DNA of 54,022 nt from Candidatus Yanofskybacteria bacterium RIFCSPHIGHO2_01_FULL_43_32. Lineage in GTDB: Bacteria; Patescibacteriota; Minisyncoccia; 2-02-FULL-40-12; GWA2-44-9. Position 1 is the first letter of the stretch. Each line of letters opens with the position of its first letter. A program made the position numbers and the translations under genes. Of this stretch, positions 15,230 to 44,700 are shown piece by piece. Where the stretch lies: positions 1-54,022 of the forward strand of contig MGJF01000001.1 in NCBI GenBank assembly GCA_001794125.1. The letters run 5' to 3'. The notes below the pieces were generated by a model that was given only the letters and a program-made list of their open reading frames with translations, ran no database searches and was not told where the DNA came from.

Positions 15230-15889
15230 ATGACGATTAACTGGTTCGGGCAGAGCTGTTTCAGAATAGAGACCAAAGAGGCCCATTCGACTGGCTCAGG
15301 GCAAGTCAGTATTTTGATAGACCCGTTTTCAAAGGATATCGGGTTGAAACCGCCCAAAATCAAAGACGATATTGTCATGGTAACTCACCAACATTTTGAC
15401 CATGACAGCCTTGAGGAGATGCCTCCCGAGTCATTTCTTATAGAAAACCCCGGCGAATACGAGAAAAAAGGAATCGCCATCAGGGGCATTTCTTCGTACC
15501 ATGACAAGGTTGAGGGTAAGGAGCGGGGACTCAATACTATATATATAATGAAAGCGGAGGAGATGACCATCTGCCATTTGGGAGACTTAGGCCAGGAGAA
15601 ACTGACCGAGAATCAGGTGGATGAGATAGGGGATGTAGATATACTCTTGGTTCCTGTCGGCGGAAATTATACAATTAATGCTAAGGAAGCCGTCGGGGTC
15701 ATCGGCCAGATAGAACCGAAGATAATTATTCCGATGCATTATAAGATTAAGGATTTGAAGATTGAACTGGACGGTCCGGAAAAATTCGTGAAAGAACTGG
15801 GCCTGACGCCGGAAAAGGCAGATAAGTACAAAATATCAAAAAAACTTCTTCCGTTGGAAGAAATGAAGTTGGTAATGTTAGAAATTTAA
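15230..15889 (+). CDS. MBL-fold Zn-dependent hydrolase
   Basis: WFGQSCF, IDPF, THQHFDH, HLGDLG, PVGG, IPMHY. Confidence 0.9.
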   Translation: MTINWFGQSCFRIETKEAHSTGSGQVSILIDPFSKDIGLKPPKIKDDIVMVTHQHFDHDSLEEMPPESFLIENPGEYEKKGIAIRGISSYHDKVEGKERGLNTIYIMKAEEMTICHLGDLGQEKLTENQVDEIGDVDILLVPVGGNYTINAKEAVGVIGQIEPKIIIPMHYKIKDLKIELDGPEKFVKELGLTPEKADKYKISKKLLPLEEMKLVMLEI

Positions 15890-15890
15890 T

Positions 15891-16241
15891 ATGAGTTTTT
15901 TAGACGAAATCCGCAAACAACCCCAGCACCACCGAGAAATAATGTTCGGTCTTTGCGTTGTCACAGCTATTTCATTGGTGGGAATGGTCTGGTATAACTC
16001 GTTTGAGAAGAATTTGTACGTATTGTTGAACCCCGGAGAAAGCACAGACCAGAGATATTTAGCCGAAAACAAAACCGCGCCTTCGTTGCTGGGAGATATC
16101 GGCAAGACAGGACAGGATCTGAAGGCGGCGTTTTACAATATTTTCAGTTTGACCGGCAGTGACAAAAAGGACGTTATCGAAAATACGAAAGCCGGCGAAC
16201 CCGTAAGAGTGTATACACTGCCCTTATCGGAGACGAAGTAA
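15891..16241 (+). CDS. Hypothetical single-TM protein
   Basis: 116 aa with one N-terminal TM helix; abuts the MBL gene. Confidence 0.7.
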   Translation: MSFLDEIRKQPQHHREIMFGLCVVTAISLVGMVWYNSFEKNLYVLLNPGESTDQRYLAENKTAPSLLGDIGKTGQDLKAAFYNIFSLTGSDKKDVIENTKAGEPVRVYTLPLSETK

Positions 16242-16394
16242 ACCCCGCCCTTGAAAAGAATTATTATAACTTATGTTACGTTCTAAAATTTAATTATTAC
16301 GATTCTTTTTAAGAGCGGAGTAAATATTTTTCAAATGATTTAAAAATGTTTGGAGGGCGGATGTCTTCCAGACATTTTCTGTTTAATTGTACGT

Positions 16395-19300
16395 ATGGCG
16401 ACAGAAATAAAACAACGGGAAATAGTCCAGGAAATGCAGCAGGCCTATCTGGAATACGCGATGAGCGTTATTGTCGCGCGCGCTTTGCCTGATGTCAGAG
16501 ACGGATTAAAACCGGTTCACCGGAGGATTTTGTATTCCATGCATGAGATGGGATTGAGGCCGACCGCGAAAACCCAGAAATCAGCCAAGGTTGTCGGATA
16601 TGTTCTCGGTAATTATCACCCCCACGGCGACACGGCAGCCTATGATTCCATGGTTCGCATGGCCCAGGATTTTTCTCTGCGTTATCCGTTGGTGAACGGG
16701 CAGGGCAACTTTGGATGTTTTACCAAAGACACAAAGGTAAAACTTACGGACGGGAGAGACTTAAACTTTAGGGAACTCATAGAAGAACACAAACAGGGAA
16801 AGAAAAACTACACCTATACAGTTAATTCTTTAGAGCTAATTTCCATAGCGGAAATTAAAAACCCAAGATTGACCAGAAAAAACTCTGAAATAATAAAAGT
16901 GTTATTAGATAATGGAGAAGAAATTAAATGTACCCCAGATCATTTGTTTATGCTCAGGAACGGCTCATATAAGAAGGCCAAAGATTTACAACCCAAGGAA
17001 TCTTTAATGCCTAATTATCAGAAAATTTCTGAAAAAACAGACAGTTTAAATCGAGACGGCTATGCCTTGGTTTACCAGAATAAAAATGGCGAATGGATCC
17101 CAGTTCACCATTTGGCGGACAATTACAATCTTACCCGAGGTATTTATGCCAAGAGCGTCGGAAGGGTAAGGCACCACAAAGATTTTAATAAACTCAACAA
17201 TAACCCCGATAACATAACTCGTATGAGTTGGGGCGAGCATTGGAAAATTCATTATACCCAGGCCTCAAATCAGCATAAAAATCCTGAATATCGCAAGAAA
17301 ATAGCAGAAGGAAGGAATGGTTATTGGGCCAATCCTTTGAATAAAGCTAAAAAAGCCGAAGAAATTTCTGTTAGAAATATAGAAAATTGGAAAAACGACG
17401 CCTATAGAGAAAAAATGGTTAAATTTTTGAGCGATGTAAATAAAAAATATATTGAAGATCATCCGGAAAAAATAAAGGAGCTTAGCACAAGAGCCACGGA
17501 AACTCTTAAAAGATTGTGGCAGGACCCAAAATACAGAGTATTGTTTCACGAGAAAATTGTTAAAGGAAATAAGAATCACACAACAAATCGAACGGGAAAA
17601 TTGAAGTTTCTCAATATTTGCCGGGAAGTTTTAAATAGACAGATTAATTTAAGCGAGAAACATTATGAGCAATTAAGAAAAGAATTATATCCTTATGGCA
17701 AGGCCACACAATGGGAGACGGGCTTAAATAAATATTTTAATGGTGATTCTAATTTAGTTTTTCACGAAATAAATAAAAACCATAAAGTAGTAAGAGTAGA
17801 AGCTATATCACACAAAGAAGATGTATATGACCTTACAATAGAAGGAAGTCATAACTTTGCATTAGCGGCTGGTGTTTTTGTCCACAACTCAATCGACGGT
17901 GATTCCGCTGCGGCTTACAGATATACCGAAGCCCGTTTGGCTCCTATATCCGAACAGCTTCTTGCGGATATAGACAAGCAGACGGTTAATTTTACCGACA
18001 ATTTTGACGGCACAATGCAAGAGCCGACGGTTTTGCCGACTCGCGTTCCGAATTTGTTGATTAACGGCTCCATGGGTATCGCCGTGGGTATGGCGACCAA
18101 TATTCCCCCGCACAATCTAACCGAGGTCTTGGATGCAATGGCGTATCTTATAGACAACAAAGAAGCGGATTTAAAAGACCTTACCCAATTTATAAAAGGA
18201 CCGGATTTCCCGACCGGTGGAGTCATATACAACGAAAAAGACATTGTCAGCGCTTATGCCACTGGCCGCGGTCCCATAATAATGAGAGGCCAGGCCGATA
18301 TTACGGAAAACAAAAAGGGCTACCAAATAATTGTTTCCGAGATTCCTTATCAGGTGAATAAATCGGAACTGATAATAAAAATTGCCGATCTTGTGAAAGA
18401 AAAGAAAATAGAAGGCATCAAAGACATCCGCGATGAATCCGATAAAGACGGATTAAGAATCGCAATTGACTTGAAGCAGGATGCTTTTCCCAAGAAAGTA
18501 CTTAACCAGATTTTCAAATACACGGAGCTTCAAAAGGCCTTTCATTTCAATATGTTAGCTTTAGTTGACGGAGGCACTCAACCCCAGATTTTGGGCTTGA
18601 AGGGATTGCTCGAGAAATTCATTGACCATCGGCACGAAGTCGTGACTCGGCGGACAAAATTTGAACTTCAGAAAGCCAAAGACAGAGCCCACATTTTGGA
18701 AGGACTTAAGAAAGCCCTTGACCACATTGACGAGATAATCAAAATAATCAGGGCCTCCGATTCAAAAGAAGACGCTTTTAATAATCTGATAAAGAAATTT
18801 AAATTCTCCGACAAACAGGCAACGGCTATTTTGGATATGAGGCTTCAGGCATTGGCCGGTCTGGAAAGAAAAAAGATAAACGACGAATTAAAAGAAAAGA
18901 AAGACCTGATTGCGTATTTTGAGGATTTGCTGGCGAGTCCGAAGAAAGTTATGGGTGTAATCAAAGAAGAATTCAAAGAAATCAGGGAAAAATATGGAGA
19001 TGAAAGACGAACAAAAGTGGTTAAGTCGGCTTTAAGAGAAATAGGGGAAGATGAGTTGATGCCCGAAGAAGATTCGCTGTTCATGATTACTCACAGCGGA
19101 TATATAAAAAGAATGCAGCCTGAAGTATTAAAATCTCAAAAAAGAGGCGGTAAAGGATTAATCGGTATGGCAACCAAGGAAGAAGATGTTGTTTCCCAAT
19201 TTTTCATGGCCAATACCCACGACAGTTTACTGTTCTTCACTAATTCCGGAAAAGTATTCCAGACAAAAGGTTATGAGGTGCCGGAGTCGTCCCGCCAGTC

Positions 19301-19994
19301 AAAAGGAAAGGCAATTGTTAATTTTTTGAACACATCTCCAAATGAAACGATTACGGCAGTAGTCCCGATTCCAAAAGAACAGAAAGGTGGATATTTGTTT
19401 ATGGCCACTGCCAACGGAGTAATTAAGAAGGTGGATGCTGATGCGTTTTCACAAGTGAGAAGCAACGGAATGATTGCAATTAAATTAAAAGGCAATGATG
19501 AGTTGGGGTGGGTCCTGTCTACTTCGGGTAATGACCAAGTAATGCTGGTTACTTCAGGAGGAAACGCTATCCGCTTTAAAGAAAAAGATGTCAGACCGAT
19601 GGGTAGAGGTGCTTCGGGTGTTATCGGTGTCCGTATGGATAAAGACGAAAAAGTTGTCGGAGCTGATGTTGTGCCATCAGGTGTTGAAAAAGGTTTGAAG
19701 ATATTGGCGGTAATGGGAAATGGTTATGGCAAAAGAACGGACCTTAAATTCTATAAGATTCAGGGCAGGGGCGGACGAGGAATTATGACCGCAAAGGTTA
19801 CGCCGAAAACAGGCAAGTTGGTCTCGGCTCACATCACCTCGGAAGAAAATAAGGAATTGATTGCTGTTTCCCGCAAAGGAGTTGTAATAAGAACTTCAAT
19901 TGAAAGCGTTTCCGTTCTCGGCCGAGCCACTCAAGGCGTCAGAATCATGCGAGTCGAATCCGGCGACGGCCTGGCCTCGGTGGTGGTGGTCTAG
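16395..19994 (+). CDS. gyrA: DNA gyrase subunit A, intein-containing
   Basis: RALPDVRDGLKPVHRR, YHPHGD, catalytic AAYRYTE, GyrA box QKRGGKG, beta-pinwheel repeats; start ATG 16395. Confidence 0.97.
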   Translation: MATEIKQREIVQEMQQAYLEYAMSVIVARALPDVRDGLKPVHRRILYSMHEMGLRPTAKTQKSAKVVGYVLGNYHPHGDTAAYDSMVRMAQDFSLRYPLVNGQGNFGCFTKDTKVKLTDGRDLNFRELIEEHKQGKKNYTYTVNSLELISIAEIKNPRLTRKNSEIIKVLLDNGEEIKCTPDHLFMLRNGSYKKAKDLQPKESLMPNYQKISEKTDSLNRDGYALVYQNKNGEWIPVHHLADNYNLTRGIYAKSVGRVRHHKDFNKLNNNPDNITRMSWGEHWKIHYTQASNQHKNPEYRKKIAEGRNGYWANPLNKAKKAEEISVRNIENWKNDAYREKMVKFLSDVNKKYIEDHPEKIKELSTRATETLKRLWQDPKYRVLFHEKIVKGNKNHTTNRTGKLKFLNICREVLNRQINLSEKHYEQLRKELYPYGKATQWETGLNKYFNGDSNLVFHEINKNHKVVRVEAISHKEDVYDLTIEGSHNFALAAGVFVHNSIDGDSAAAYRYTEARLAPISEQLLADIDKQTVNFTDNFDGTMQEPTVLPTRVPNLLINGSMGIAVGMATNIPPHNLTEVLDAMAYLIDNKEADLKDLTQFIKGPDFPTGGVIYNEKDIVSAYATGRGPIIMRGQADITENKKGYQIIVSEIPYQVNKSELIIKIADLVKEKKIEGIKDIRDESDKDGLRIAIDLKQDAFPKKVLNQIFKYTELQKAFHFNMLALVDGGTQPQILGLKGLLEKFIDHRHEVVTRRTKFELQKAKDRAHILEGLKKALDHIDEIIKIIRASDSKEDAFNNLIKKFKFSDKQATAILDMRLQALAGLERKKINDELKEKKDLIAYFEDLLASPKKVMGVIKEEFKEIREKYGDERRTKVVKSALREIGEDELMPEEDSLFMITHSGYIKRMQPEVLKSQKRGGKGLIGMATKEEDVVSQFFMANTHDSLLFFTNSGKVFQTKGYEVPESSRQSKGKAIVNFLNTSPNETITAVVPIPKEQKGGYLFMATANGVIKKVDADAFSQVRSNGMIAIKLKGNDELGWVLSTSGNDQVMLVTSGGNAIRFKEKDVRPMGRGASGVIGVRMDKDEKVVGADVVPSGVEKGLKILAVMGNGYGKRTDLKFYKIQGRGGRGIMTAKVTPKTGKLVSAHITSEENKELIAVSRKGVVIRTSIESVSVLGRATQGVRIMRVESGDGLASVVVV
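16716..17888 (+). mobile_element. Intein (391 aa) with HNH endonuclease domain
   Basis: GNFG|CFTKDTKV ... CTPDH ... VYDLTIEGSHNFALAAGVFVHN|SIDG; internal HHKDFNKLNNNPDNI HNH motif. Confidence 0.95.
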
Positions 19995-19997
19995 TTT

Positions 19998-20577
19998 TCG
20001 CTCAAACCAACCCATCTTTCCGCCTTTTCTCCCGCTTCCATCGCAACCTCTCTTCTATCACAACTCCGCAATGCGAACAAAATGGGGTCTCATTTCATAA
20101 ATATGCGAGAGCGCTCTGCTAATTCGCATATTTACTCATTCGACCCCTATTTTGTTTACCCCATTGCTGCGTGGAGTGCTATCAGAGAGATTGACGATGG
20201 GAGCTTAAATTATATCCCGGCCAAATCCCCGTCTGAATCACTCCTCGGAGCGATACGGTAACACAAAGAAGCTGACGGATGGAAAAATTGTCATTATAGC
20301 GAAGCGCTCATTCAGGTACCACACCAAGGAGCGAGACCCCGTTCCCATTTGAGGCCGTTTGGTTTCGCCAGGTAACACAAGACTAAAATTAACCGATAAT
20401 TTGCTTATTCAATAAATTTTAGCCGGAAAACCCCGCTCTTTCTTGAAGATTAGAAAGAACGGGGGCAAACGGTTGCTGAAATTTATTAAGCAAATTGAAA
20501 GTTAATTTTAGTATTTGTCTGGCGAAGATCCGGAGGACGTAACCAATAGGCCGACAAATGGGGATGGGGTTGAGCGA
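19998..20577 (+). ncRNA. Candidate large structured RNA with two long imperfect hairpins
   Basis: Stems 20034-20204 and 20336-20570 with repeated G.U pairs on the + strand; no convincing ORF. Confidence 0.5.
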
Positions 20578-20623
20578 CACTTTGTTTATAACTCCCTACC
20601 TCTTGTGTGCTAAAATATTAAAT

Positions 20624-21211
20624 ATGCAGGCAATGAATATGCCCGGTTCGGCTTTGCCGGACACAAAGGGAACAGGCGGTTTTATGAATCCCGACAAAAT
20701 AGCCGGCGGGTTTGGAATTAAAGAAGGAATGTCGATTGCCGACTTCGGTTCAGGAGCGGGTTATTTTACCATTTTACTGGGTCAGAAAGTCGGACTCAGC
20801 GGAAAAGTTTATGCGTTAGATATTCAGGAATCAGCTCTGGATAACGTCAGGGTCAAAGCAAAAGCGGCCGGATTGGATAACGTTGAAATGATCAGAAGCA
20901 ATCTTGAAGTTTTGGGCAGTTCCGGTTTGACGGACAACTCGCAGGACATGGTCCTTCTTGCCAATATTCTTTTTCAGTCAGACAAGAAAGGAGAAATAAT
21001 CAAAGAAGCCGTCAGGGTTTTAAAGAGCGGGGGAACTTTGGTTGTGATTGACTGGAAAAAAGCGGCCGGCCAAGGCGGATTCGGACCGCCAGATGATTTA
21101 AGAACAGATGAGACAGTAATGCGTTCTTTGGCGCTTAGAGAGGGATTGGTTTTTGAGAACGAAATTGACGCCGGACAGTTTCACTACGGCATGAAATTCA
21201 AGAAGGGATGA
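20624..21211 (+). CDS. Class I SAM-dependent methyltransferase
   Basis: IADFGSGAGYF, VYALDI, LKSGGTLVVIDW; start ATG 20624 lies 7 nt after TGcTAAAAT. Confidence 0.9.
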   Translation: MQAMNMPGSALPDTKGTGGFMNPDKIAGGFGIKEGMSIADFGSGAGYFTILLGQKVGLSGKVYALDIQESALDNVRVKAKAAGLDNVEMIRSNLEVLGSSGLTDNSQDMVLLANILFQSDKKGEIIKEAVRVLKSGGTLVVIDWKKAAGQGGFGPPDDLRTDETVMRSLALREGLVFENEIDAGQFHYGMKFKKG

Positions 21212-26435: not shown

Positions 26436-26522
26436 GCCGAGGTGGAGAAACTGGCAGACTCATCAGCCTTAGGAGCTGATGCTCGCAAGGGCGTGTGGGT
26501 TCAAATCCCACCCTCGGCACCA
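26436..26522 (+). tRNA. tRNA-Leu(TAG)
   Basis: tcagc-ctTAGga-gctga; long variable arm; CCA encoded. Confidence 0.95.
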
Positions 26523-26531
26523 ATACAGAAT

Positions 26532-26559
26532 TCAACGGCTCACACATGTGAGCCGTTGA
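26532..26559. repeat. REP-like palindrome, family B copy 2 (terminator position)
   Basis: tcaacggctcaca-ca-tgtgagccgttga between convergent tRNA-Leu and vanW-like gene. Confidence 0.8.
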
Positions 26560-27738
26560 TTATTCCAACGGATTTCTGGCTTGAGCGAAAGGCGGCTGGT
26601 AGTTGGAATCAAAACGTTCGTCTTTTTTCTCGCCGTTGGCATATGTGACGGTCCTGACGAAGTAAGCTTTCATGGACCCGTTGTCCTTTTGATCATATTG
26701 ATGAGGACCGTCTATCACTGCCTGTCTTTCATCGCTGGAACCGTAGAGTTCAACGATTAATTTGGTGCCTTCTTTCCTGATTTGCAGCAGGATGTGTCCT
26801 TTCGTGTCGTTAATGAATTTTAAATCAGAAACCCCGGGATAAATAGTAGCGTCAAATCCTTGCGGACTATAATATTTTACGGGAAAGGAATGCGGCCGCC
26901 TTTCTGTAATAGAAAGCCCGGCTAAAACAGCGGCCCTGAAAACGGTTGTTGAAATCTGACAGAGACCGCCCCCGTATTCCGGTATGGTTTGTCCGCCTTT
27001 TATTACCATTTCCGGTTGATATCCCGTCTTTTCATCCACACTTCCCAGAATATTGTTGAAAGAAAACTCTTCTCCGGGCTTTATGATGGTACCATTGAAT
27101 TTAGAAGCGCCGGTCTTAATGTTGTGGATTCTTGCGTCGCTTGAGCCGTGAAAGTCGGATTCGCCTTTTGCCAGCAGGGTTTTTATGCCAAGATTATTTG
27201 CCTTTTCCAGAGTAATCTCCGGTTCTATGATATCTACGGTCAGCTGGGCCGAAGTCTTGTTTTCACGAAGAGCGTTAATTATAGCCGTAGCGGACTTGGC
27301 AATATTGAATTTTTTGCCCTGGACCGATTGGCTGAACACAGCCGCTTTATTATCGCCTCCGAATTCAAATTTAGCGTCAACCGGTTCGATGTTGGTGGCC
27401 GCAGCCAGCCGAATCAGATAATCGCTAAACTTGGAAGAGACCCGCAAATCTTGTTTGCCCGAGTAAGCTCTTGTATATGATTCTATCCAGCCTTTCAACT
27501 CATCGCTTCTTACCGTTATTTTGCCGCCGGCGGTATCCAGTTCCAGATCCTTTTGGGCGGAAGCGTTAAGAATCGACGCAAAATTTTTCAACGGAACCTT
27601 GGGACTGAACGCCGAAACGGTATATAGATAGAACCGGAATCCAAAATTAAATCCGATCAGGACAATAACGCCGATTATGGTCAGTCGGTAAATTAAAACC
27701 CTGAATTCTTTAGGGCCTATATAAACTAACTTGAACAT
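26560..27738 (-). CDS. VanW-family protein
   Basis: RIHNI, IKPGEEFSFN, GGGLCQISTTVF, ERRPHS, GFDATIY, DLKFINDT. Confidence 0.9.
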   Translation of the reverse strand: MFKLVYIGPKEFRVLIYRLTIIGVIVLIGFNFGFRFYLYTVSAFSPKVPLKNFASILNASAQKDLELDTAGGKITVRSDELKGWIESYTRAYSGKQDLRVSSKFSDYLIRLAAATNIEPVDAKFEFGGDNKAAVFSQSVQGKKFNIAKSATAIINALRENKTSAQLTVDIIEPEITLEKANNLGIKTLLAKGESDFHGSSDARIHNIKTGASKFNGTIIKPGEEFSFNNILGSVDEKTGYQPEMVIKGGQTIPEYGGGLCQISTTVFRAAVLAGLSITERRPHSFPVKYYSPQGFDATIYPGVSDLKFINDTKGHILLQIRKEGTKLIVELYGSSDERQAVIDGPHQYDQKDNGSMKAYFVRTVTYANGEKKDERFDSNYQPPFAQARNPLE

Positions 27739-28982: not shown

Positions 28983-31058
28983 CTAGCTGGGCCATTTCTC
29001 AACAATAAGAAGTCCCTTGTCTTTAATGGGTAACTTTGAGTATACTTCTTCGGTTATGAACGGCATGAATGGGTGAAGAAGTTTGAGACAGGTTAGAAGC
29101 AAATAAGCGAGAGCGTTTTTTGTTTCTTGGTCATCTTTGTCTTTTGTTTCTTCAATATATTTGTCCGCAAATTCGTGCCAGATGAAATCATATAGTTCAT
29201 GGGCCGCTTCTCCGAATTTGTATTTTTCGATATTTTTTGTCACCGATTCCGCCGCCGAGTCCATCTTGGAAATTATTTCCGAGCCGAGAGGCCTTGTCCC
29301 TGTTATTTCGTAGTCATCTCCTAATTTCATCAAAACATATCGGGCGATATTCCAGAATTTATTGGCAAATTTTTTACCCATTATGATTGTGTCTTCTCCG
29401 AACCTCATATCCTGCAGTTCGGTTGTTTGATAAGCCAAGCCGAATCTTAGAGCGTCTGCGCCGTATTTTTCGATAACTGCCAGAGGATCAATGCCAGTAC
29501 CAAGAGATTTTGACATTCTTTTCCCGTTTTTAGTGAGCACGGTTGCGTGAATGTAAATATCTTTAAACGGAGCGGAACCTGTAAAGAATTTTCCGGAAAA
29601 TATCATGCGGGCTTGCCAGAGGTAGCGGATGCCTCTGTCTGAAGTAATAAAATCAGTCGGGTAGTATTCGGTTAAGTCTTTTGTTTTTTCCGGCCAACCC
29701 ATAGCGGCAAATGGCCATAAAGCAGAAGAAAACCATGTATCAAGCACGTCTTCCTCGCCGTCAATAGGTATTTTGTGACCCCACCATAATTGGCGGGAAA
29801 TATTCCAGTCGCGGACATTGGTAAGCCAGTTTTTCATATCTTGTCCCCATTTTTCTGAATGCACTACAACTTCGCCATTACCAAGAGCTTCTATCGCCAA
29901 TTTTGCCAACTCTTCCATTTTCAGGAACCATTGTTTTGAAGGCAGAGGTTCTATTACAGAATCACATCGGTCGCAGTGGCCGACATTGTGGTCGTAGTCT
30001 TCAATTTTTTCAATCAGGCCAAGTGTTTCAAGGTCCTTGGCTATTTGTTCTCTGGCTTGAGCAACCTTCAGGCCCTGATAACGGATGCCGGCGTTCTCAT
30101 TCATCTTGCCGCGTTCGTCAATAATTTTTACAAGCGGCAAATTGTGGCGCAGAGATATTTCATAATCGGTAAGGTCGTGGGCGGGTGTGACCTTGATAAT
30201 GCCTGTGCCAAATTCTTTGTCTACAGAAATATCGTCCACAACTTTGAGGGAAATTTTTTTGATTTGCGGTGGTTGTTCGGCCGGAAGCGTATTGTCTACC
30301 GAATCTATTTCTATTTCTTGTCCGATATATTTTTTATAGCGCTCATCGCTTGGGTGAACCGCAAGGGCGGTATCGCCGAGCTTGGTTTCGGGCCGGGTCG
30401 TTGCCAATACGAACGGTCCGTATTTTATGAAATATAATCTTCCTTTTTCGGGAACATGATTTACCTCAAGGTCGGATATGGAGGTGGCACAGCGGGGACA
30501 CCAACTAATAACCCGTTCGCCCCGGTAAATCCAACCTTTCTCCTGGTATTTTTTGAAAGCAGTTTCAACGGCTTTTTGATAGCCGGGATTCATGGTGAAT
30601 TGAGTACGTGTCCAGTCAACCGAAAGCCCGAGTTTTTTGAATTGGTCAAGAATGATATTTCCATACTTCTCACGCCACTCCCACATTCGTTCAAGAAATT
30701 TTTCGCGGCCAATCTTGTGTCGGGTCAGACCTTCTTTGGCGAGCTGTTTCTCCACCTTGTTTTGGGCGGCGATACCGGCATGATCGGTGCCCGGGAGCCA
30801 AAGAGTTTTATAGCCCTGCATGCGCCGCATTCGGATGACGATATCTTCAAGGGTATTTTCTAAAGCATGACCAATGTGGAGTTCGCCGGTAATATTGGGC
30901 GGAGCGATGGCGGCTACGAATTTACGAGAAGTAAATCTATCCTCCTTCGCCGAGGCTACGGAGGACAGTCCTTCTGGACTGAAAAATCCGCTCTCCTCCC
31001 AGAGTTTGTAAATTTTGTCTTCAACTTCTTTGGGGCTGTATGCTTTCGGAAGTTCCAT
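28983..31058 (-). CDS. valS: Valine--tRNA ligase (compact)
   Basis: PPNITGELHIGH, PGTDHAGIA, ATTRPET, DWNISRQLWWGH, DTWFSS, RMSKS. Confidence 0.97.
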   Translation of the reverse strand: MELPKAYSPKEVEDKIYKLWEESGFFSPEGLSSVASAKEDRFTSRKFVAAIAPPNITGELHIGHALENTLEDIVIRMRRMQGYKTLWLPGTDHAGIAAQNKVEKQLAKEGLTRHKIGREKFLERMWEWREKYGNIILDQFKKLGLSVDWTRTQFTMNPGYQKAVETAFKKYQEKGWIYRGERVISWCPRCATSISDLEVNHVPEKGRLYFIKYGPFVLATTRPETKLGDTALAVHPSDERYKKYIGQEIEIDSVDNTLPAEQPPQIKKISLKVVDDISVDKEFGTGIIKVTPAHDLTDYEISLRHNLPLVKIIDERGKMNENAGIRYQGLKVAQAREQIAKDLETLGLIEKIEDYDHNVGHCDRCDSVIEPLPSKQWFLKMEELAKLAIEALGNGEVVVHSEKWGQDMKNWLTNVRDWNISRQLWWGHKIPIDGEEDVLDTWFSSALWPFAAMGWPEKTKDLTEYYPTDFITSDRGIRYLWQARMIFSGKFFTGSAPFKDIYIHATVLTKNGKRMSKSLGTGIDPLAVIEKYGADALRFGLAYQTTELQDMRFGEDTIIMGKKFANKFWNIARYVLMKLGDDYEITGTRPLGSEIISKMDSAAESVTKNIEKYKFGEAAHELYDFIWHEFADKYIEETKDKDDQETKNALAYLLLTCLKLLHPFMPFITEEVYSKLPIKDKGLLIVEKWPS

Positions 31059-31649: not shown

Positions 31650-31666
<17 letters not shown>
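31130..31666 (+). CDS. Hypothetical Zn-ribbon protein with C-terminal TM
   Basis: CSDC, CPDC and CGRC pairs; hydrophobic C-terminus. Confidence 0.65.
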
Positions 31667-32759
<1,093 letters not shown>

Positions 32760-32871
32760 GATTGTAAGATTTTATCATTTTTATTGCCCATTCAACAAGT
32801 TCAGGGCAATCCTGAGCATGCCGAATGGATTGATTTTTTTCAATTTTTGTGGCAAAATACTTTAGTTACAT

Positions 32872-32946
32872 GGCCCTATCGTCTATCGGTTAGGACATTT
32901 GCTTTTCAAGCAAAGAAGGCGAGTTCGACTCTCGCTAGGGCTGCCA
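32872..32946 (+). tRNA. tRNA-Glu(TTC)
   Basis: tttgc-ttTTCaa-gcaaa; CCA encoded. Confidence 0.95.
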
Positions 32947-33075
32947 GGCACAATTCTGCGCCTGGCTTCGCCGAAGACAGATACAGAATTGTATCTGTCG
33001 AAGGTGAAGTCAGAAGTAGAATTGGGACGCAGGCGGGTATAGTATTGTACCCGCCCGTGTTTTAAAATATTATAT

Positions 33076-33336
33076 ATGAGATTCTATTATGTTTACGTTT
33101 TATACAACCAAAGCGAGAATTTTATTTACATAGGTTATTCCGAAGATTTAAAACAAAGAGTCACAGAACACAATAAAGGCCGTGTTAAATCAACAAAATC
33201 TTTCTTGCCCTTGGAGTTGATCCATTATGAAGCGTATAAAAACAAGAAAGACGCAAAACGCAGAGAATTATATTTGAAGACCAACAGAGGCAGAACAACA
33301 CTTCTGACAATGCTTAAAGAGTATTTTACAGAATAG
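33076..33336 (+). CDS. GIY-YIG nuclease (small standalone type)
   Basis: YVYVL, IYIGYSEDLKQRVTEHN, STK, AKRRELYLK. Confidence 0.92.
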   Translation: MRFYYVYVLYNQSENFIYIGYSEDLKQRVTEHNKGRVKSTKSFLPLELIHYEAYKNKKDAKRRELYLKTNRGRTTLLTMLKEYFTE

Positions 33337-33843: not shown

Positions 33844-34035
33844 TTCCGCCTAATGGCGGTTTTATTTTTCGGTAGATAATATTAAAAAATCTAGTATTAA
33901 TGTGGGATTTTGTATAAAATATGTATAGATATCGAAGAACAAAGTTTCCCAGTGTTCTGGTTCGGCAAGCTCACCATCAAGATCTATTGGCCCTGCTATT
34001 GATTTTTAAGAAGGCGGGGAATATAATTTATTCAT

Positions 34036-36308: not shown

Positions 36309-36353
36309 ATCTCAATCTTATCGTGTTTTTTTCACTAAATCTATATATCCTGA

Positions 36354-36462
36354 ATAGTTCACACAACCTCTACTCGTACGGAGGGAGACGTCTTTTTAAA
36401 AATTGTACTAATTTTGTAAAAAGTGTCTCCCTCCGCTGGTTGCTTCGGTGGTAGGGGGCGAT
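36354..36462 (-). repeat. Structured repeat, family C copy 1
   Basis: atagttcacacaacctcta is the exact reverse complement of 46636-46654; shared hairpin and ccctccgcYggttg. Confidence 0.75.
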
Positions 36463-36814: not shown

Positions 36815-36933
36815 GACACATGCCTTCAGAGAAGGACTCGGAGGCATTTCGGCTTGGTTCTGCGAAATGCCGAGAGACAAGAAAGATTTGCCGCCGGAGC
36901 AAATCTATTCTGGTTCGGATGAAGGAATGTGTC
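36815..36933. repeat. MITE-like structured repeat, family A copy 3
   Basis: gacacatgccttca / tgaaggaatgtgtc TIR; nearly colinear with 13444-13565. Confidence 0.8.
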
Positions 36934-36942
36934 TTGAGCGCT

Positions 36943-38001
36943 TTATTTTCTTTCTTCCAGTTTAACTTTCACCTTAACTTGCCGGTCTTTTCTCAAAACA
37001 GTCAGTTCTACTTCTGATTCAACTTTAAATTTTTGGAGCATATCCTGAAGCTCTTCGGATATTTTTTCCCCGTTTAATTCCAGAATTATGTCGTTCTCTC
37101 TGATTCCGGCTTTTTCCGCGGGAGAGTCGGGGACAATGGCCACGGAATCCGGTCGGTGGTCTCGAACGACTAAAGCTCCGTAATCAACCGGCAAAGAATA
37201 TTGCTTCTGCAGTTTTTTGTCTAATTTTACGTATTGAAGACCTAAATACGGCTTAACGATCCTTCCGTATTTTATAATGTCTTCAAGGTCTTGCTTTGCC
37301 CAGTTTATCGGAATTGAGAACCCTATGTTCTGGGCGCCGAAAATAATAGCGGTGTTGATGGCGACCACCTCTCCGTCGATGTTTATCAGCGGACCGCCTG
37401 AATTGCCCTGATTAATGGCTACATCTGTCTGAAGAACGCCCCGCAGATGTTCCATTTCTCCCCCGGTGCCCAGAGCGGCGGAAATACTTCTTGATAATCC
37501 GGAAATTATTCCTTTTGAAACGGTATTGGAAAACATGCCCAAGGCATTTCCGATGGCGAGTACGGTTTGTCCCAGTTCAAGCTTTGACGAATTTCCCAGA
37601 CGAACGGCTGGCAACCCTTTTCCGCCAGCTGGCGGATTAATTTTCAAAACGGCAATGTCATTTATCGGGTCTCGGGAGAGGACTTTTGCCGGATATTCCT
37701 GAAGGTCGGTCGTAATGACGGTGTATTCGGCATCCTGATCAAAAACGACATGTTTGTTGGTGAGTATAAGACCGTCGGGATGAACGATAAATCCGGAGCC
37801 GCCGCCCACGCTTATTTTTTCTTTTTGGCCGTCCTCAACTTCTCCGAACAGGAATGGGTTTGAAAAAGGAGTACCGGGCATGCCGTAAACCCCCTTAATT
37901 TTTGGAAGGAATTTTGATATAACGACACTAACCACCGAAGGAGCGACTTTTCTCACTGCTTCAATGGGAAGCTTGTCGTATTCATTAGATAATGTAGTCA
38001 T
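36943..38001 (-). CDS. HtrA/DegP-like trypsin serine protease with PDZ domain
   Basis: GSGFIV, TNKHVV, DIAVLK, TDVAINQGNSGGPL; C-terminal PDZ; no signal peptide or TM. Confidence 0.93.
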   Translation of the reverse strand: MTTLSNEYDKLPIEAVRKVAPSVVSVVISKFLPKIKGVYGMPGTPFSNPFLFGEVEDGQKEKISVGGGSGFIVHPDGLILTNKHVVFDQDAEYTVITTDLQEYPAKVLSRDPINDIAVLKINPPAGGKGLPAVRLGNSSKLELGQTVLAIGNALGMFSNTVSKGIISGLSRSISAALGTGGEMEHLRGVLQTDVAINQGNSGGPLINIDGEVVAINTAIIFGAQNIGFSIPINWAKQDLEDIIKYGRIVKPYLGLQYVKLDKKLQKQYSLPVDYGALVVRDHRPDSVAIVPDSPAEKAGIRENDIILELNGEKISEELQDMLQKFKVESEVELTVLRKDRQVKVKVKLEERK

Positions 38002-38010
38002 ACCATAAGT

Positions 38011-38523: not shown

Positions 38524-38589
38524 TTGTTGTTGACTTCAGGCGTGGGGGTGGTATTCTGCGGGCAACTGAACATTAAAAAGGAAACTAAA

Positions 38590-39204
38590 GTGGAACAGTC
38601 GGTGTGTCGTTCAGTGAGGCTCGACTCTGTCGATGAGAAGCTTGAGCTTTTGGCCGATAGAGGTATTTTTATTATCGGCGGTGAAATTGATGCCGGTACC
38701 GTAGGAGGATTGTTTGCCAACCTGTTTACAAAATTAACACCTGAAACGAAGAAGCCGCTTTGGATAATGCTGGACTCTCCCGGCGGAAGCATCTATCAAG
38801 GATTGGCCGTCTATGATTTTTTGAGAGCCGTTGCTCTTCAGGGTTGGGAGGTAAACATCATATCTGTCGGCGATGTTGCTTCAATGGCAGTATGTATTCT
38901 TCAGGCCGGAACAAAGCGCTATTCTTTTCCAAATACCCAATTTACCGTTCATCAGGCCAGTATGAGCGGTGAGGGTGAACACCAGGAAGTAAATAAACTT
39001 TTAGAAAGCGCCGAAGAGTTAAAACGGTTGAACAAGGTTGTTTTTAAGATTGTTGCCGAACGGTCGGGCATGGATATGAAAGAGCTGTTGAATCTTTCCA
39101 GAAAAACCGACTATTCCATCAGCGCCGATAAGGCCAAAGGATTCGGTCCGCATGGGCTGATTGATGAAGTGGTCGCCACGTTTCCCTTCCAAATAAACGG
39201 CTAA
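38590..39204 (+). CDS. clpP: ClpP-family protease proteolytic subunit (divergent)
   Basis: DSPGGS, ASMA (Ser), VHQ (His), GLIDEV; GTG start with aaggaa SD. Confidence 0.85.
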   Translation: MEQSVCRSVRLDSVDEKLELLADRGIFIIGGEIDAGTVGGLFANLFTKLTPETKKPLWIMLDSPGGSIYQGLAVYDFLRAVALQGWEVNIISVGDVASMAVCILQAGTKRYSFPNTQFTVHQASMSGEGEHQEVNKLLESAEELKRLNKVVFKIVAERSGMDMKELLNLSRKTDYSISADKAKGFGPHGLIDEVVATFPFQING

Positions 39205-39248
39205 GTTAAGCCGTTTTTTTATTTGAGAAATTAAGGTAAGATGTGTGT

Positions 39249-40856
39249 ATGGTAAAAGAGTGGTTAAGAAAAAAAATTTCAAGCAAATTTCCGGATATAG
39301 AATTCGATATTTTAACGCCCCCCTCCTTCGCTAAAGCTTCGGAGGGCAAGCCGGATTTGGGGGATTATTCCGTTAATCTTGCCTTTATTGTTGCCAAAAG
39401 GGATGGGATAAGTCCAATGGAAGCGGGTAAGAATTTAATAGGAGAATTTTCGGGCGACAAAGAATTCAGCAAAAAATTCAGCAAGATTCAGTTTGTTCCA
39501 CCGGGGTTTATTAATTTTTATTTAAGCGAAGAATTCTTAAGGTTATCTCTCGAAACAATTATAAAAGAAGGAGACAAATTTGGGGATTCTGAAGCGGGCA
39601 AGGGGACCAAGATAAACCTTGAATTTGTTTCAGCCAATCCGACGGGTCCGTTAACGGTCGGCAATGCCCGCTCTGCGTCTTTTGGCGATACGCTTGGAAA
39701 TATTTTTAAAAAAACCGGATACGAAGTGAGAAAAGAATATTACATTAATGATGTCGGGAATCAGGTGAACAAGCTTGCCGAATCGGTAAAATTAAGAATG
39801 CTTGAATTGAAAGGCGAGAAAGTGGAATTTGGCCCTGACTTGTATCAAGGCGAATACGTGAAAGAAATAGCCAAAGAATTTTTGGACAAAGTCGTTTCAG
39901 AAAAAGATATTCCCGGCCAAGTGATAAAAGCCATGACAGACGGGGCCAAGAGCTCTGCAAAAAAAATGGGCGTCGAGTTCGATGAATGGTTTCCTGAATC
40001 GCGGCTTCATGAAAGCGGAGAAGTTAAGGAAGTTCTTGCCGAACTGGAGTTAAGGGGATTTATTGTTGAGGAAGACGGAGCCAAGTGGTTAAAGATAAAT
40101 GACGACCAGAAAGCTGTTCTGGTCAAAAGTGATGGCTCAACTACATATTTATTGAACGATATCGCTTATACCAAAAATAAATTTGAGAGAGGATTTACGA
40201 GTGCCCTAAATATCTGGGGCGCGGACCATCACGGCGATATCATAAGACTGAAAACGGGTGTTGCCGCTTTGGGCTATGATCCGGACCGTCTGGAAATACT
40301 TCTTCACCAGTTTGTCTCCATTAAAGAAAAAGGCGAACTTCAAAAAATGTCCAAAAGAGCCGGGCGATTCGTACTTTTTGATGAACTGCTGGCCGAGGTC
40401 GGCAAAGACGCTGTCAGGTTTTTCTTTCTGACAAGGGACTTAAATACTCACATGGAGTTTGATATTGACCTGGCTAAAAAACAATCAAAAGAAAATCCGG
40501 TTTTCTATATTCAATACGCGTTTGCGCGCTTAAACAGTGTTTTTGCGAAAGCGGAGGGAACCCGGACCGGTAATGCGGATAGAATTAAAGAAGAGGAGGA
40601 ATTCCGGTTATTAAAGGACCTTATTAAGCTTCCGGAAATTATCGAAGATATTTCTCAAAATTATCAGGTTCATCATTTGGCCCGGTATGCTTTGAATCTT
40701 GCCGGTGATTTTCATAAATTTTATGAGAAGCATCATATCATTCAAGAGAATGACACGGAACTGCAGTCGGCGCGCCTTTTGCTTGCCCGGGGAGTGCACA
40801 TGGTTTTGAGGATTTGTTTAGACCTTATGGGTCTTTCGGCTCCGGAGAGAATGTAG
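39249..40856 (+). CDS. argS: Arginine--tRNA ligase
   Basis: EFVSANPTGPL, EYYINDVGNQ, GADHHG, KMSKRAG, YIQYAFAR. Confidence 0.97.
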   Translation: MVKEWLRKKISSKFPDIEFDILTPPSFAKASEGKPDLGDYSVNLAFIVAKRDGISPMEAGKNLIGEFSGDKEFSKKFSKIQFVPPGFINFYLSEEFLRLSLETIIKEGDKFGDSEAGKGTKINLEFVSANPTGPLTVGNARSASFGDTLGNIFKKTGYEVRKEYYINDVGNQVNKLAESVKLRMLELKGEKVEFGPDLYQGEYVKEIAKEFLDKVVSEKDIPGQVIKAMTDGAKSSAKKMGVEFDEWFPESRLHESGEVKEVLAELELRGFIVEEDGAKWLKINDDQKAVLVKSDGSTTYLLNDIAYTKNKFERGFTSALNIWGADHHGDIIRLKTGVAALGYDPDRLEILLHQFVSIKEKGELQKMSKRAGRFVLFDELLAEVGKDAVRFFFLTRDLNTHMEFDIDLAKKQSKENPVFYIQYAFARLNSVFAKAEGTRTGNADRIKEEEEFRLLKDLIKLPEIIEDISQNYQVHHLARYALNLAGDFHKFYEKHHIIQENDTELQSARLLLARGVHMVLRICLDLMGLSAPERM

Positions 40857-41276
40857 TATGAAAGAAAATAATCCCGCTCCAAGTATATCCATCAGGAGAT
40901 CGTTTATCGTGTCGTCCATGTCGCCCATAAAATAAGCCCTAACGCCGAAATTTTTATAGATCGGCTCGATTAACGTTTGGTTGGCCAAGTATTCGGCGAA
41001 TTCCCAAGTTACTCCTATAAACGAGACTGCGCCCAAAATGATCAGGGTGTTTTTTAATTTTGAATCAGCGGGGAGATGGTCTTTCAGGTACGCTGAAAAA
41101 AACATGGCCACGAAAAATCCTCCCGAAAAATGTAAAACCTGGTCAGACCAGGAATAGTCAAGATACCACCCGTAACAGAGGCTTATGATGTTAATAAAAA
41201 ATATCGCAATCAGGAATAAAAAAGCTTTTTTCATCTTCTGTTGATTAAATTTAACATCTAAGATAAAATTATTCAA
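40818..41276 (-). CDS. Membrane protein
   Basis: About 4 TM helices; D..LHFSGG, WEFAEY, DTINDLLMDILGA motifs. Confidence 0.75.
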   Translation of the reverse strand: MNNFILDVKFNQQKMKKAFLFLIAIFFINIISLCYGWYLDYSWSDQVLHFSGGFFVAMFFSAYLKDHLPADSKLKNTLIILGAVSFIGVTWEFAEYLANQTLIEPIYKNFGVRAYFMGDMDDTINDLLMDILGAGLFSFILHSLRSRKTHKV

Positions 41277-41300
41277 TCAGTTTTTCAATAAGGAAGATAA

Positions 41301-41762
41301 ATGACCGCACCGGCTCACTACGCCATCGGCGCTGCGAGCGCATTGCTCATTCAAAATTATCTTCCGGCCGAATCCGGTGACAAGACAAGAATAGCATGGG
41401 CTTTGGGGATTGCTGTTGCATCGCATGTCGCCGCAGACGCTATTCCCCACGCTGAGCATTTTCTTAAGGGGTGGCATCTTTTCTTGGAACTTATTGTTGA
41501 GACGACAGCGATGCTTGCCGTTCTTGTCGGCGCTTCACGTTCCCCGTTTGCGGCCGCGATAATTTTGTCGGGTATGGCGGGAGCGGCCATACCCGACGGG
41601 CTTGGCATGCTAAGCCACTGTGTTAATTGGCCGGCTCTTTCATGGGTAGACGATAAAACGCATTTGTTTCACGGCAAATTGAATTTATTCTATGCCACTT
41701 TCTTTGTGCAAGTAGTGATAACTATCCTGTGCAGTATTTACGTCCGCATCAAAACCGCTTGA
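41301..41762 (+). CDS. Membrane protein, possible metal-dependent hydrolase
   Basis: HYAIG, SHVAADAIPH, IPD, HLFH motifs with TM helices. Confidence 0.7.
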   Translation: MTAPAHYAIGAASALLIQNYLPAESGDKTRIAWALGIAVASHVAADAIPHAEHFLKGWHLFLELIVETTAMLAVLVGASRSPFAAAIILSGMAGAAIPDGLGMLSHCVNWPALSWVDDKTHLFHGKLNLFYATFFVQVVITILCSIYVRIKTA

Positions 41763-41787
41763 AAAGCGGTCCTTTTTTATCTATAAT
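41759..41787 (+). promoter_or_regulatory. Sigma70-type promoter of ileS (near-leaderless)
   Basis: TTGAAA-N17-TATAAT, 9 nt before the ATG. Confidence 0.75.
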
Positions 41788-41796
41788 CAAGTCAGA

Positions 41797-44700
41797 ATGA
41801 GCGACTTTAATTTTGCCGATAAAGAAAAAAGGATACTGGATTTTTGGAGAGATAATAAAATTTTCGAAAAATCTCTGGCCCTCCGACAATCTCAGGGCAA
41901 GTGTTTTGTTTTTTTTGAAGGTCCGCCGACGGCAAACGGACTGCCTCACATCGGGCATTTTCTGACCAGGATTTATAAAGATGTCTATGGCCGTTACAAG
42001 ACAATGCGCGGATTTTATGTCCAAAGAAAAGCCGGCTGGGACACCCACGGTCTGCCGGTGGAAATAGAAGTTGAAAAGGAGCTGGGTTTTAAAAACAAAA
42101 AAGACATCGAGATATACGGGATAGACAAATTCAACAAGAAAGCCAAAGAGAATGCCGGAAAATATATTAAGGAATGGGAAGAGATGACCAAAAAAATGGG
42201 ATTTTGGGTTGATTTGAAAAATCCCTACTTTACTTATAAAAATCAGTATATTGAATCGCTTTGGTCAATCATCAAAAAGATTTGGGACAGGAAATTATTA
42301 TATTTAGCGCATCGGGTCGTGCCTTTTTGTACAAGATGCGGGACAGGATTGTCTTCACATGAGGTAGCACAAGGATATAAAAGTGTAAAAGACAAATCGG
42401 TTTACATAATGTTCAAAATGAAGGGTGGCACCAACTCAAATTCTTATGTTCTTTCGTGGACGACCACGCCTTGGACACTTCCGGGTAATGTGGCTTTAGC
42501 TATTAATCAAAATTTATCTTACATTCGTGCGAGGATAAAGATTAATGGAGCAGAGCAGTGGGTAATAACCGCGGAAAGTACGTGGCCAAAAATTAGACAA
42601 TTTTTAGTTGAAAAAGGATTCCATCCTCATGAACAAGGGAGCCAAATACCAGTAAGGGAATTAATTGGCGAATCATATGAACCACTTTTTGATATTCCGA
42701 AATTAAAATCTCAATCGTCCTATAAAATTTATCCAGCGGATTTTGTAAACGCTGATGACGGAACAGGCGTAGTTCATACCGCGGTAATGTACGGTGAGGA
42801 CGATTACAATTTAGGAACCAGGATTGGCTTACCGAAATTTCATACCGTTGATGAGCGGGGCAGGTTTATTCATGTCGGACAGGGCCTGGACGGAATGTAT
42901 GTGAAGGATAAAGAAACAGATAATTTGATAATCGAAATTCTTGAAAAGAAAGGCAACCTTCTAAAGACGGAAGAATATGAACATGATTATCCTTTCTGCT
43001 GGAGATGCGATACGCCGCTTTTGTATTACGCCAAAGAATCCTGGTTCATAAAAATGTCGGCGGTGAATAAGGAGTTGCTGAAGAGTAATCAGAAAATAAA
43101 CTGGTTCCCCGGACACATTAAAGAAGGCCGATTCGGCCAATGGCTCAAAGAAGGGAAGGACTGGGCATTTTCTCGCGAGAGATATTGGGGAACGCCTCTG
43201 CCGATATGGAAATGCAGCGACTGCGGCGAGTTTGTGACAATCGGTTCGTTAGATGAATTGGAAAAAAACAGATACAAGCCAAAAAATGAATTCTATGTTC
43301 TGCGCCACGGACACAGCGAGAAAAACGGAAGACCCGGAGAGCCGGCGACGATAAGCTCCCGTTTGGAACACGACAAATACCATTTGACCGAAGATGGCAT
43401 AGAGCAGGTAAAAAACGTCGCAAAGAAATTAAAAAAACTTGGCGGAGTGGACACGATAATTTCTTCGCCGTTTTTGAGAACCAAAGAAACTGCCCGGATA
43501 ATTGCCGATGAATTGGGCTTGAAGGTTCACTTGGAACCGGAGATAAGAGAGTATGACCATGGTTCCGCGTGTGAAGGAAAAACCGAACATGTCTGCTTGG
43601 TTGCCCATGCTGACCAAAGATGGGAAACCAAAACTCCTGACGGTGAGAGTTGGATGGAACTGCGAAGGAGAATGTCCGGATTCTTGAGAGATCTTGACGC
43701 TAAACATGAAGGAAAGCGTATCCTGCTTGTCAGCCATGGCGACCCGATATTTCTTTTGGAGACATTTACTTTGGGGCTTGCCAAAGACGAAGCCCCGGCT
43801 TCAAGAGAAAAGATATATCCCAAAGAGGCCGAACTTAAGAAATTGAATCTGAAGAACTGGCCGCATGACGATGACGGAGAATTGGATTTACACAGACCTT
43901 ATATCGACCGGATAGTTTTAAAATGCAAAAAGTGCGGCGGAAAGATGGCAAAAATACCTGACCTGATTGATGTCTGGTTTGATTCCGGCGCCATGCCCTA
44001 TGCCCAACAGCATTGGCCGTTTGAAAACGGGAAGATGTTCAAGGAACAATTTCCTGCCGACTTTATCGTTGAAGCAATAGACCAGACCAGAGGATGGTTC
44101 TTCACGCTTCTTGCCATATCGACCTTGCTTGAAAAGGGCGCGCCGTATAAGAACGTAATGGTGCTTGGCCATGCGCTTGATGAAAAAGGCCAGAAGATGT
44201 CCAAATCCAAAGGCAACTATGCGCCGGTGATGGAATTTATGAATAAATACGGCGTTGATGTTTTGAGATGGTATTTTTTGTCGTCAATGACGATAGGCGA
44301 GAGCAAAAGCGTAATCCCGAGAGAAATAGAAGATAAGCAGAAAGGATTTTTCGGCACGCTCGGAAATTGTATAAAATTTTATGAATTATATGCTACTGAA
44401 CCAACGACCAACGACCAACGACCAACGACTTTATTAGACAAGTGGATATTGTCAAAATTAAATGAACTGATTGTAGAAGTATCGGATTGCTTGGATAAAT
44501 ACGATCCAACCTCGGCGGCTAAAGCGGTAGAGAAATTTGTTGCGGAGGATTTTTCCAATTGGTGGTTAAGGCGTTCCCGAAGAAGAAAAGAAGCCCTCGG
44601 CTTGTTAAGGTTTTTGCTTTTGGAGGTTGCCAAAATAATCGCCCCGTTCATTCCTTTTACTGCGGAAGATATTCATATGCGTATGCACGCCGGCCAAAAT

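Follow-up and report, generated by a model that had tools for sequence, protein, structure and literature searches.

Small dispersed repeats lie in frame within essential genes of a Candidatus Yanofskybacteria genome, and one of them recurs across bacterial phyla

Introduction

Repetitive extragenic palindromic (REP) units are palindromes of 20-40 bp that form a stable stem-loop, and the classical Rickettsia palindromic element (RPE) RPE-1, at roughly 100-150 bp, is several times longer than the units described here. Fungal mitochondrial GC clusters are very short GC-rich palindromes that spread in AT-rich compact genomes, sometimes in coding sequence, and some elements of this type are bypassed in translation. 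DNA uptake signals consist of one motif at about one copy per kb. In this report we describe three families of short repeats (F1, F2 and F3) in a 54,022-nucleotide stretch, hereafter the window, which is the entire contig C1 (MGJF01000001.1) of Candidatus Yanofskybacteria bacterium RIFCSPHIGHO2_01_FULL_43_32 (assembly GCA_001794125.1, Patescibacteriota; hereafter G000). Copies of these families lie within six genes that Pfam assigns to a metallo-beta-lactamase (MBL)-fold protein, TsaD, IleS, ValS, ArgS and an HtrA-type protease.

Intragenic REPs as well as small RPE-type repeats are described in PMC3733652; some of the REPs lie inside known genes and are read through, and recB of two Xanthomonas species is reported to hold different REPs at nearly one position. 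REPs of the CGTC class, with stems of 8-9 bp and loops of 4-5 bases, are presented there as having no dedicated transposase. In Acinetobacter baylyi, short-patch double illegitimate recombination, or SPDIR, yields microindels of 3 to about 100 bp, variable in size and bounded by microhomology, and its frequency rises on loss of RecJ and ExoX and with foreign DNA entering via the competence pore (10.1101/2023.11.22.568220). The palindromic amphipathic repeat coding elements called PARCELs (PMC2996958) are something else, namely tandem repeats of 25 residues in proteins. In the limited literature collection searched, there was no report of such elements in Patescibacteria among the 15 listed of 2,460 matches, no paper contained the F1 motif (15-mer and 14-mers, both strands), and the peptide readings of the motifs returned only unrelated matches, with none for two of the F1 readings.

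Results

All three families exceed chance both in the window and across G000, and every site quoted by the initial annotation of this DNA is present (Table 1), with the reservations that one intergenic F1-like copy is a weak match and that the F2 copy in valS runs antisense to the gene. Against 100 shuffles of the window per family, the 15-mer core of F1 at up to 3 mismatches gave 7 matches vs. 1.36 expected (0 of 100 shuffles reached 7), the F3 16-mer gave 2 exact matches vs. 0.02 and the degenerate 22-mer of F2 gave 2 exact matches vs. 0.00, with no shuffle reaching 2 in either case. Genome-wide (761,941 bases in 13 contigs, about 43% G+C, 100% complete by marker genes), there were 20 sites of the F1 core at up to 2 mismatches, 9 sites of the F2 core at up to 3 mismatches, to which the valS copy is additional, and 22 exact loci of the F3 16-mer with C or T allowed at one loop position, comprising 10 perfect palindromes and 12 one-sided variants. 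A reversed-pattern F3 control gave no match in any of the 41 genomes of the order that formed our distribution panel, and an unbiased k-mer count placed F1-F3 among the most repeated 12- and 14-mers of G000.

Table 1. Repeat copies located in the window.
Feature	Position	Strand	Remarks
F1 copy, MBL-fold gene (15230-15889)	15281-15305	+	sense, about codon 18; 2 mismatches in 15-mer core
F1 copy, tsaD (31650-32759, minus strand)	32677-32698	-	sense, about codon 21
Inverted F1 pair, units 5 nt apart, intergenic between tsaD and tRNA-Glu	32786-32829		tRNA-Glu 32872-32946
F1-like copy, intergenic, weak	33958-33976	+	3 mismatches in 15; membership doubtful
F1 copy, ileS (41797-45270)	41878-41901	+	sense, about codon 28
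F2 copy, valS (28983-31058, minus strand)	30940-30968	+	antisense to valS, about codon 30
F2 copy, argS (39243-40856)	39324-39350	+	sense, about codon 28
F3 perfect 16-bp palindrome, tsaD	31989-32004		reads PPAGG
F3 perfect 16-bp palindrome, HtrA-type protease gene (36943-38001, minus strand)	37621-37636		reads PPAGG

The intergenic F1 pair had been thought to overlap the -35 element of tsaD; the match to consensus is 9 of 12 in a region that gives 3 such matches vs. 1.5 expected, and this single weak consensus match was dropped as a promoter overlap.

By a crude longest-ORF call (809 open reading frames [ORFs], coding density 91%), ORFs contain 18 of the 20 F1 sites, 5 of the 9 F2 sites and 23 of the 27 F3 sites found with no more than 1 mismatch. 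Of the 15 F1 copies whose ORF is 100 aa or longer, 13 are in sense orientation (p=0.027 vs. the 60% expected from stop-free frames) and 7 fall within the first 50 codons vs. 2.6 expected (p=0.006). The five F2 copies in ORFs have a single orientation and frame, and F3 uses its frames 16:6:1 (p=0.0005), with PPAGG as the favored reading. The proposal that conservation acts at the level of DNA was supported, as the frame and orientation in which one unit is read differ between copies and the PPAGG-reading F3 copies, 16 in number, all have identical codons. Convergence at the level of the peptide was ruled out, given the codons common to the copies and their occurrence in three frames and in either orientation. 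Stop codons are absent from every frame of sense F1, of F3 and of P2, a 20-bp palindrome that emerged from the same k-mer count together with a 28-bp palindrome, P3, and longer intergenic elements. P3, in contrast, has stops in 2 of its 3 frames and looks purely intergenic in the flanks inspected, and hence the families residing in genes appear to be those that genes can carry.

As to these further families, P3 lies at 14957-14994 and 26527-26564 of the window, the latter copy directly after tRNA-Leu (26436-26522), and its 32 arm matches in G000 correspond to about 16 paired loci, with a few arms standing alone; with a DNA fold energy of -15.9 kcal/mol, it is probably a terminator-like or REP-like hairpin. 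The longer intergenic families measure about 100-130 nt with 10-18 copies each and are represented in the window at 46564-46649, at 36359-36370 together with about 13510-15180, and at 36848-36892. Public contigs accumulate on some of these longer repeat regions.

Most of the in-gene copies are length gains relative to orthologues, for which we compared five genomes of the same genus (G001-G005, with 75-86% protein identity to G000) and more distant relatives. In tsaD, the F1 copy adds 12 nt (4 residues) vs. all five same-genus genomes, and the F3 copy adds 12 nt vs. three and 6 nt vs. four others of the eight relatives compared. The F3 copy of htrA adds 12 nt vs. G002-G005, with a decayed copy at the same position in G001. 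The F2 copies add 24 nt (8 residues) each, in argS vs. 4 of the 4 same-genus sequences recovered and in valS in a same-genus comparison that left out G002. In the MBL gene, F1 adds 8 residues at a strand turn that is empty in 25 of 29 relatives, including the same-genus G001 and G003. Five more F3 sites, in genes outside the window, show gains of +4, +4, +5, +3 and +4 residues (the names recR-like, murF-like, L10-like, LeuS and trmD for genes outside the window were given by eye from alignments). Clean gains of 8 residues are seen in the MBL gene, argS, valS of G000, valS of G004 and of the metagenome loci L081, L082 and L141 (L-numbers denoting such loci), and rsmA of G002. The claim that the peptides are insertions fails at two F1 sites, ileS, with a net gain of 1 residue vs. 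G001, G003 and G004, and a trmD-like gene, with a net gain of about 1 residue; these copies have therefore replaced sequence of near-equal length rather than having been inserted, and it is at these two sites, and not elsewhere, that orthologues of equal length occur.

Two inserts deserve separate mention in this context. One of the five F3 copies outside the window, at C11:25150-25165 of G000, lies between the cysteines of a Cys-x-x-Cys motif in a LeuS-like gene, the knuckle being 4 residues longer than in 5 of 5 relatives, and four heptamer repeats lie in frame in tsaD at about 32503-32530 of the window (minus strand), adding 6 residues that are common only to G002.

Certain loops are struck repeatedly, and by different families in sister lineages. 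The valS loop harbors F2 in G000 and F1 in G004, each adding 8 residues, and F1 also in three metagenome relatives; among 81 ValS N-termini (G000 and 80 metagenome loci), 35 have at least 3 extra residues in this loop, with at least 10 different kinds of insert and length peaks at +5 and +8. At the ileS site, F1-type copies are found in G000 and G002 and an F3-type palindrome in G005; in tsaD, G021 has two tandem F1 units where G000 has F3; and the MBL turn is filled in G000, G002, G005, G011 and G022, with gains from +5 to +11. The expectation that the inserts map to surface loops is supported by a structural model of TsaD (predicted local distance difference test score 90.3), the one protein modeled, in which the F1 insert falls in a turn between strands 12-23 and 27-39 and the F3 insert in a loop between helices 238-251 and 262-290; the third insert, that of the heptamer repeats, falls in loop 79-90. 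A Cys-rich insert of 23-31 residues occupies the same ValS loop in L091, L096, L097, L108, L137 and L146 and could represent either a larger element of another kind or a small module that binds metal.

The F1 unit measures 24 bases, consisting of a 3-4-bp stem, a conserved 13-base loop and a short conserved tail. In 130 copies taken from other genomes, conservation extends over a 21-mer, the two bases before it (95% and 98%) and the one after it (75%), with flanks that are unrelated. F1 had been described as a palindrome, which it is not: its fold energy (-0.8 kcal/mol vs. -1.0 for shuffles) is no better than chance and the stem is short, though it covaries. Specifically, 20 aligned copies show compensatory changes in the three pairs closing the 13-base loop, with CG to UA/AU changes at pairs 10:28 and 11:27, and the covariation score was 0.338 vs. 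0.158 for shuffles (0 of 500 reach 0.338) and at most 0.164 for slid controls. F2 has its 5' part, middle and tail in common with F1 and pairs better (-4.3 vs. -2.5 kcal/mol for shuffles), while F3 pairs over 6 bp around a loop of 4 bases, the outer two of which vary (-6.3 vs. -1.3 kcal/mol); across families, unit lengths range from 16 to 30 bases. Neither end of the aligned copies bears the GTAG or CGTC tag described in PMC3733652, F1 and F2 sharing another tail after the stem.

Tandem F1 arrays with a period of 24 nt occur in G035, G021 and in records of Flavobacteriales and Anaerolineales. An acidobacterial record has two Acido-Lenti-1 hairpins (39 bits, gathering score 37) with 25 bases in a loop where the model has 1, a gain of exactly 24, and two further records show the same loop expansion at lower score. 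Searches of Rfam gave no family for the repeats themselves, this host hairpin being the only meaningful match and the others falling far below gathering scores. Among 120 F1 loci, inverted repeats of at least 7 nt flank the unit in 13 (control 3%). Direct repeats are found at 22 of the loci (control 3.9%), nested F1 copies or tandem repeats accounting for several of these.

Within the order, the exact F1 15-mer occurs in 28 of the 41 genomes (reversed-pattern control 0 everywhere) and the exact F3 16-mer in 18. Copy numbers differ among close relatives, with 9, 1, 5, 9, 4 and 14 F1 matches in G000-G005, respectively, and with 22 F3 loci in G000, about 19 in G016 of another genus and 0 in the same-genus G001 and G002; such patchiness is as expected of something that spreads. 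Orthologous copies may also be kept exactly, as with the recR-like F3 copy of G000 and G005, which is identical within flanking DNA of about 81% identity. Well beyond the order, the exact F1 21-mer was found in at least 125 stretches among contigs representing one genome per species; the 80 matches listed come from about 16 phylum-level groups, and the carriers among them include cultured alphaproteobacteria, a cyanobacterium and complete chromosomes. The F1 21-mer is present in 12 viral contigs and an F2 21-mer in 4. Public sequence runs containing the stretch number 20, all of DNA and all as contigs, with no RNA run among them. Public contigs break at the F2 copy of argS, with ends at 39303 or 39319 and starts at 39322 or 39323, and numerous loose contig ends with unrelated flanks start at 39320 and 39352; these breaks show that the repeat is present elsewhere in the community and are neutral with respect to mobility.

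Among candidate enzymes, G000 encodes two Y1_Tnp genes of the IS200/RAYT type (RAYT, REP-associated tyrosine transposase), at C5:3886-4930 and C12:4264-5003, with products of 222 and 231 aa; genes of this type occur in 23 of the 41 genomes. A hairpin flanking one of them is also present in frame in the neighboring rsmA, adding 7-8 residues in a loop that holds other inserts in G004 and G002. In addition, G000 has six small GIY-YIG genes (84-101 aa), one reverse transcriptase gene (RVT_1, 91.9 bits, C3:22272-22877, open frame 352 aa), and ComEC and DprA. RecJ was not found with the NCBIfam model TIGR00644 in this search, which did not extend to divergent DHH proteins and for that reason provides a lead only.

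A tRNA gene lies just upstream of three of the six small GIY-YIG genes (window 32872-33294; C2:288732-289100; C2:220100-220451), the arrangement in the window being the tRNA-Glu gene followed by hairpins and then by the nuclease gene at 33085-33294. A small GIY-YIG gene elsewhere in the window (12339-12536) is bracketed by an inverted pair of a 13-base motif (12265-12568), and inverted pairs of this motif about 50 nt apart occur with no gene between them at C2:6715/6768, C2:275958/276015 and C9:7978/8033. The pairs with and without a gene look like filled and empty cassette sites.

Discussion

F1-F3 resemble the REP/REPIN-RAYT systems of PMC3733652 as short, GC-rich, dispersed, hairpin-like repeats, patchy between related strains, that also form intergenic inverted dimers. 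They nevertheless differ from the intragenic REPs so far described in being without the defining tags or a cognate transposase, in being smaller and in residing mostly in genes: 1) the stem of F1 measures 3-4 bp and its loop 13 bases, in place of the 8-9-bp stems and 4-5-base loops of the CGTC families, and F3 is only 16 bp long; 2) ORFs contain 85-90% of the F1 and F3 copies, whereas REPs are mostly extragenic; 3) GTAG and CGTC tags are missing, as is a RAYT gene flanked by F1-F3; and 4) one unit is letter-identical across about 16 phylum-level groups. The analogy to Rickettsia palindromic elements drawn by the initial annotation holds for behavior and not for size. As with RPEs, housekeeping genes in a reduced genome carry selfish-looking repeats in frame and seem to tolerate them as extra protein segments, and apart from the F1 copies of ileS and trmD these repeats form in-frame segments absent from orthologues; yet the units here are of 16-30 bases, add 2-8 residues, belong to another phylum and include one family that is not lineage-restricted. 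GC clusters as generally described are organellar and of other sequences, while the units here are stop-free and amount to whole codons. SPDIR, for which imported DNA can act as donor, resembles the present case in that short patches are templated ectopically, vary in net size and replace recipient bases, and differs in that here one unit recurs dozens of times with sharp edges, a covarying stem and cross-phylum conservation.

Our preferred reading, which we hold tentatively and at somewhat less than even weight, is that F1-F3 are miniature non-autonomous modules, REP-like but smaller, which would be copied via a single-stranded intermediate by a sequence-specific activity acting in trans. We postulate that this activity is encoded away from the copies and recognizes the units, which would then be copied to new places through single-stranded DNA. 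As the units or their net gains amount to whole codons and are stop-free in most frames, and 91% of the genome is coding, we propose that copies landing in tolerant turns and loops would therefore survive and be translated as 2-8 extra residues, with selection removing the remaining copies. That the unit is dispersed, discrete, constrained in structure and the same in different phyla speaks for protein recognition and for copying through single-stranded DNA, and the inverted repeats flanking F1 likewise point to insertion into single-stranded loops. The hairpin shared by a Y1 gene and rsmA provides a precedent within G000.

Several observations weigh against this reading. We found no enzyme that moves F1-F3 on comparing the Y1 and small GIY-YIG genes. 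No constant target duplication was evident in the flanks of the 120 F1 loci. The system had been called active at the outset, a claim not borne out by the public contigs of four runs, which show no polymorphism between filled and empty sites and no contig joining across an element-free allele. Net gains of F1 vary between +24, +15, +12 and about +3 nt (+8, +5, +4 and about +1 residues), and those of F3 between +2 and +5 residues (+6 to +15 nt at seven sites, mostly +4 residues) although the palindrome measures 16 nt, so that an element of fixed length moved by cut and paste would need later deletions. Lastly, some empty sites already resemble the ends of F1, as judged by eye at 3-4 sites in valS, MBL and tsaD together with junction microhomology: the empty valS site of L092 holds the 5' trinucleotide of F1 beside its 3' octamer, L099 differing by a 15-nt fill, and the empty MBL site of G001 has both F1 ends 5 nt apart.

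A narrower version, possible and rather less likely, is that F1 in particular is a 24-base, frame-neutral, stop-free insertion module whose loop is recognized by a conserved host or phage function, with F2 and F3 as relatives or analogues. In this version, the host or phage function would bind the 13-base loop on its short stem in single-stranded DNA and so keep F1 identical, and F1 would land in the exposed loops of other hairpins as well as in genes, steadily adding eight-residue loops to proteins across bacteria. If so, it would rank among the smallest mobile DNAs known.

The rival that survives best, though we consider it doubtful, is that the copies are templated microindels made without a dedicated enzyme, with copy-bearing single strands, supplied by the genome itself or by imported DNA, annealing at replication forks via the GC-rich ends of the unit and being built in like Okazaki fragments; more copies would mean more donors, and the motif would be self-driving. 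The varying net gains, the near-equal-length replacements at ileS and trmD and the end-like empty sites in valS and MBL argue for microhomology-bounded integration of the SPDIR type, and the last of these fit templated repair better than transposition. The lead on RecJ, lacking a match in a complete genome that has ComEC and DprA, goes in the same direction. A passive process, however, leaves unexplained the identity of the 13-base loop across about 16 phylum-level groups, the sharp 24-base edges and the exact gain of 24 bases in a curated hairpin loop, and it explains the compensatory stem changes only weakly; moreover, SPDIR rates in Acinetobacter, as given in 10.1101/2023.11.22.568220, are very low. 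Whether the units are mobile modules or microindels, the in-gene pattern itself is explained by selection for whole codons, absence of stops and tolerant loops.

It is unlikely that the two Y1 transposases of G000 mobilize F1-F3 as their REP sequences. Each gene is indeed flanked by hairpins, one of which lies in frame in rsmA, and all 7 genomes with at least 6 F3 loci have at least one Y1 match; these counts come from genomes that are kin and therefore are not independent, and 11 of 23 genomes devoid of F3 have Y1 genes as well. The flanking hairpins belong to other families, of 4 and 5 loci, the GTAG and CGTC tags are absent, and G035, G038 and G039, with 15, 5 and 10 F1 matches, have no Y1_Tnp match.

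We give still less credence to the view that the motifs are functional sites, such as protein-binding sites, uptake signals or RNA hairpins, amassed by selection or biased uptake. Under this view one would point to the exact sequence kept at orthologous sites of diverged genomes, the excess of F1 in the first 50 codons, the presence of ComEC and the intergenic inverted pairs beside tRNA genes, which could be terminators. Against this, most copies are length gains of 12-24 nt and not substitutions, several unrelated families behave alike, and one loop holds different families in sister lineages; nor is the density that of uptake signals, each family numbering only 20-30 copies in 762 kb and F3 being missing from G001 and G002.

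Least credible of all is a role for the small GIY-YIG nucleases, whose possible link to the repeats was raised at the outset, in spreading the repeats by cutting in them or close by. Although two of the six genes in G000 have an F1 inverted pair no more than 300 nt away, as does one of six in relatives (a syntenic gene in G003), the 1.5 kb around the other 5 loci in relatives is free of F1, F2 and F3, gene counts in G000-G005 (6, 1, 0, 3, 1 and 1) do not track those of F1 (G005 has 14 F1 matches and 1 gene, G002 5 and 0), and the proximity may reflect a shared position after tRNA genes.

If F1-F3 are mobile modules as we favor, essential enzymes, among them aminoacyl-tRNA synthetases, TsaD, HtrA and RecR-like and TrmD-like proteins, would gain short loops by a process at the DNA level, and such gains would owe nothing to protein-level selection as their source. 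Alignment of orthologues, structure prediction, annotation of low-complexity segments and metagenome assembly would all be affected. The recurrence of a 24-base unit across phyla also raises the question of what preserves so short a sequence and what moves it, and the cultured isolates carrying the F1 unit, for example of Sphingopyxis or Citromicrobium, make experiments possible outside this uncultured group.

Additional observations

Two features of the window stand apart from the repeats. ARAGORN places a tRNA-Ile with anticodon TAT at 6120-6192. The 1157-aa IleS (41797-45270) contains a His_Phos_1 domain (E=3e-30) at residues 500-662, which begins where the N-terminal tRNA-synt_1 match ends (residue 497), Pfam giving two tRNA-synt_1 stretches in this protein; the domain is an unusual fusion or insertion.

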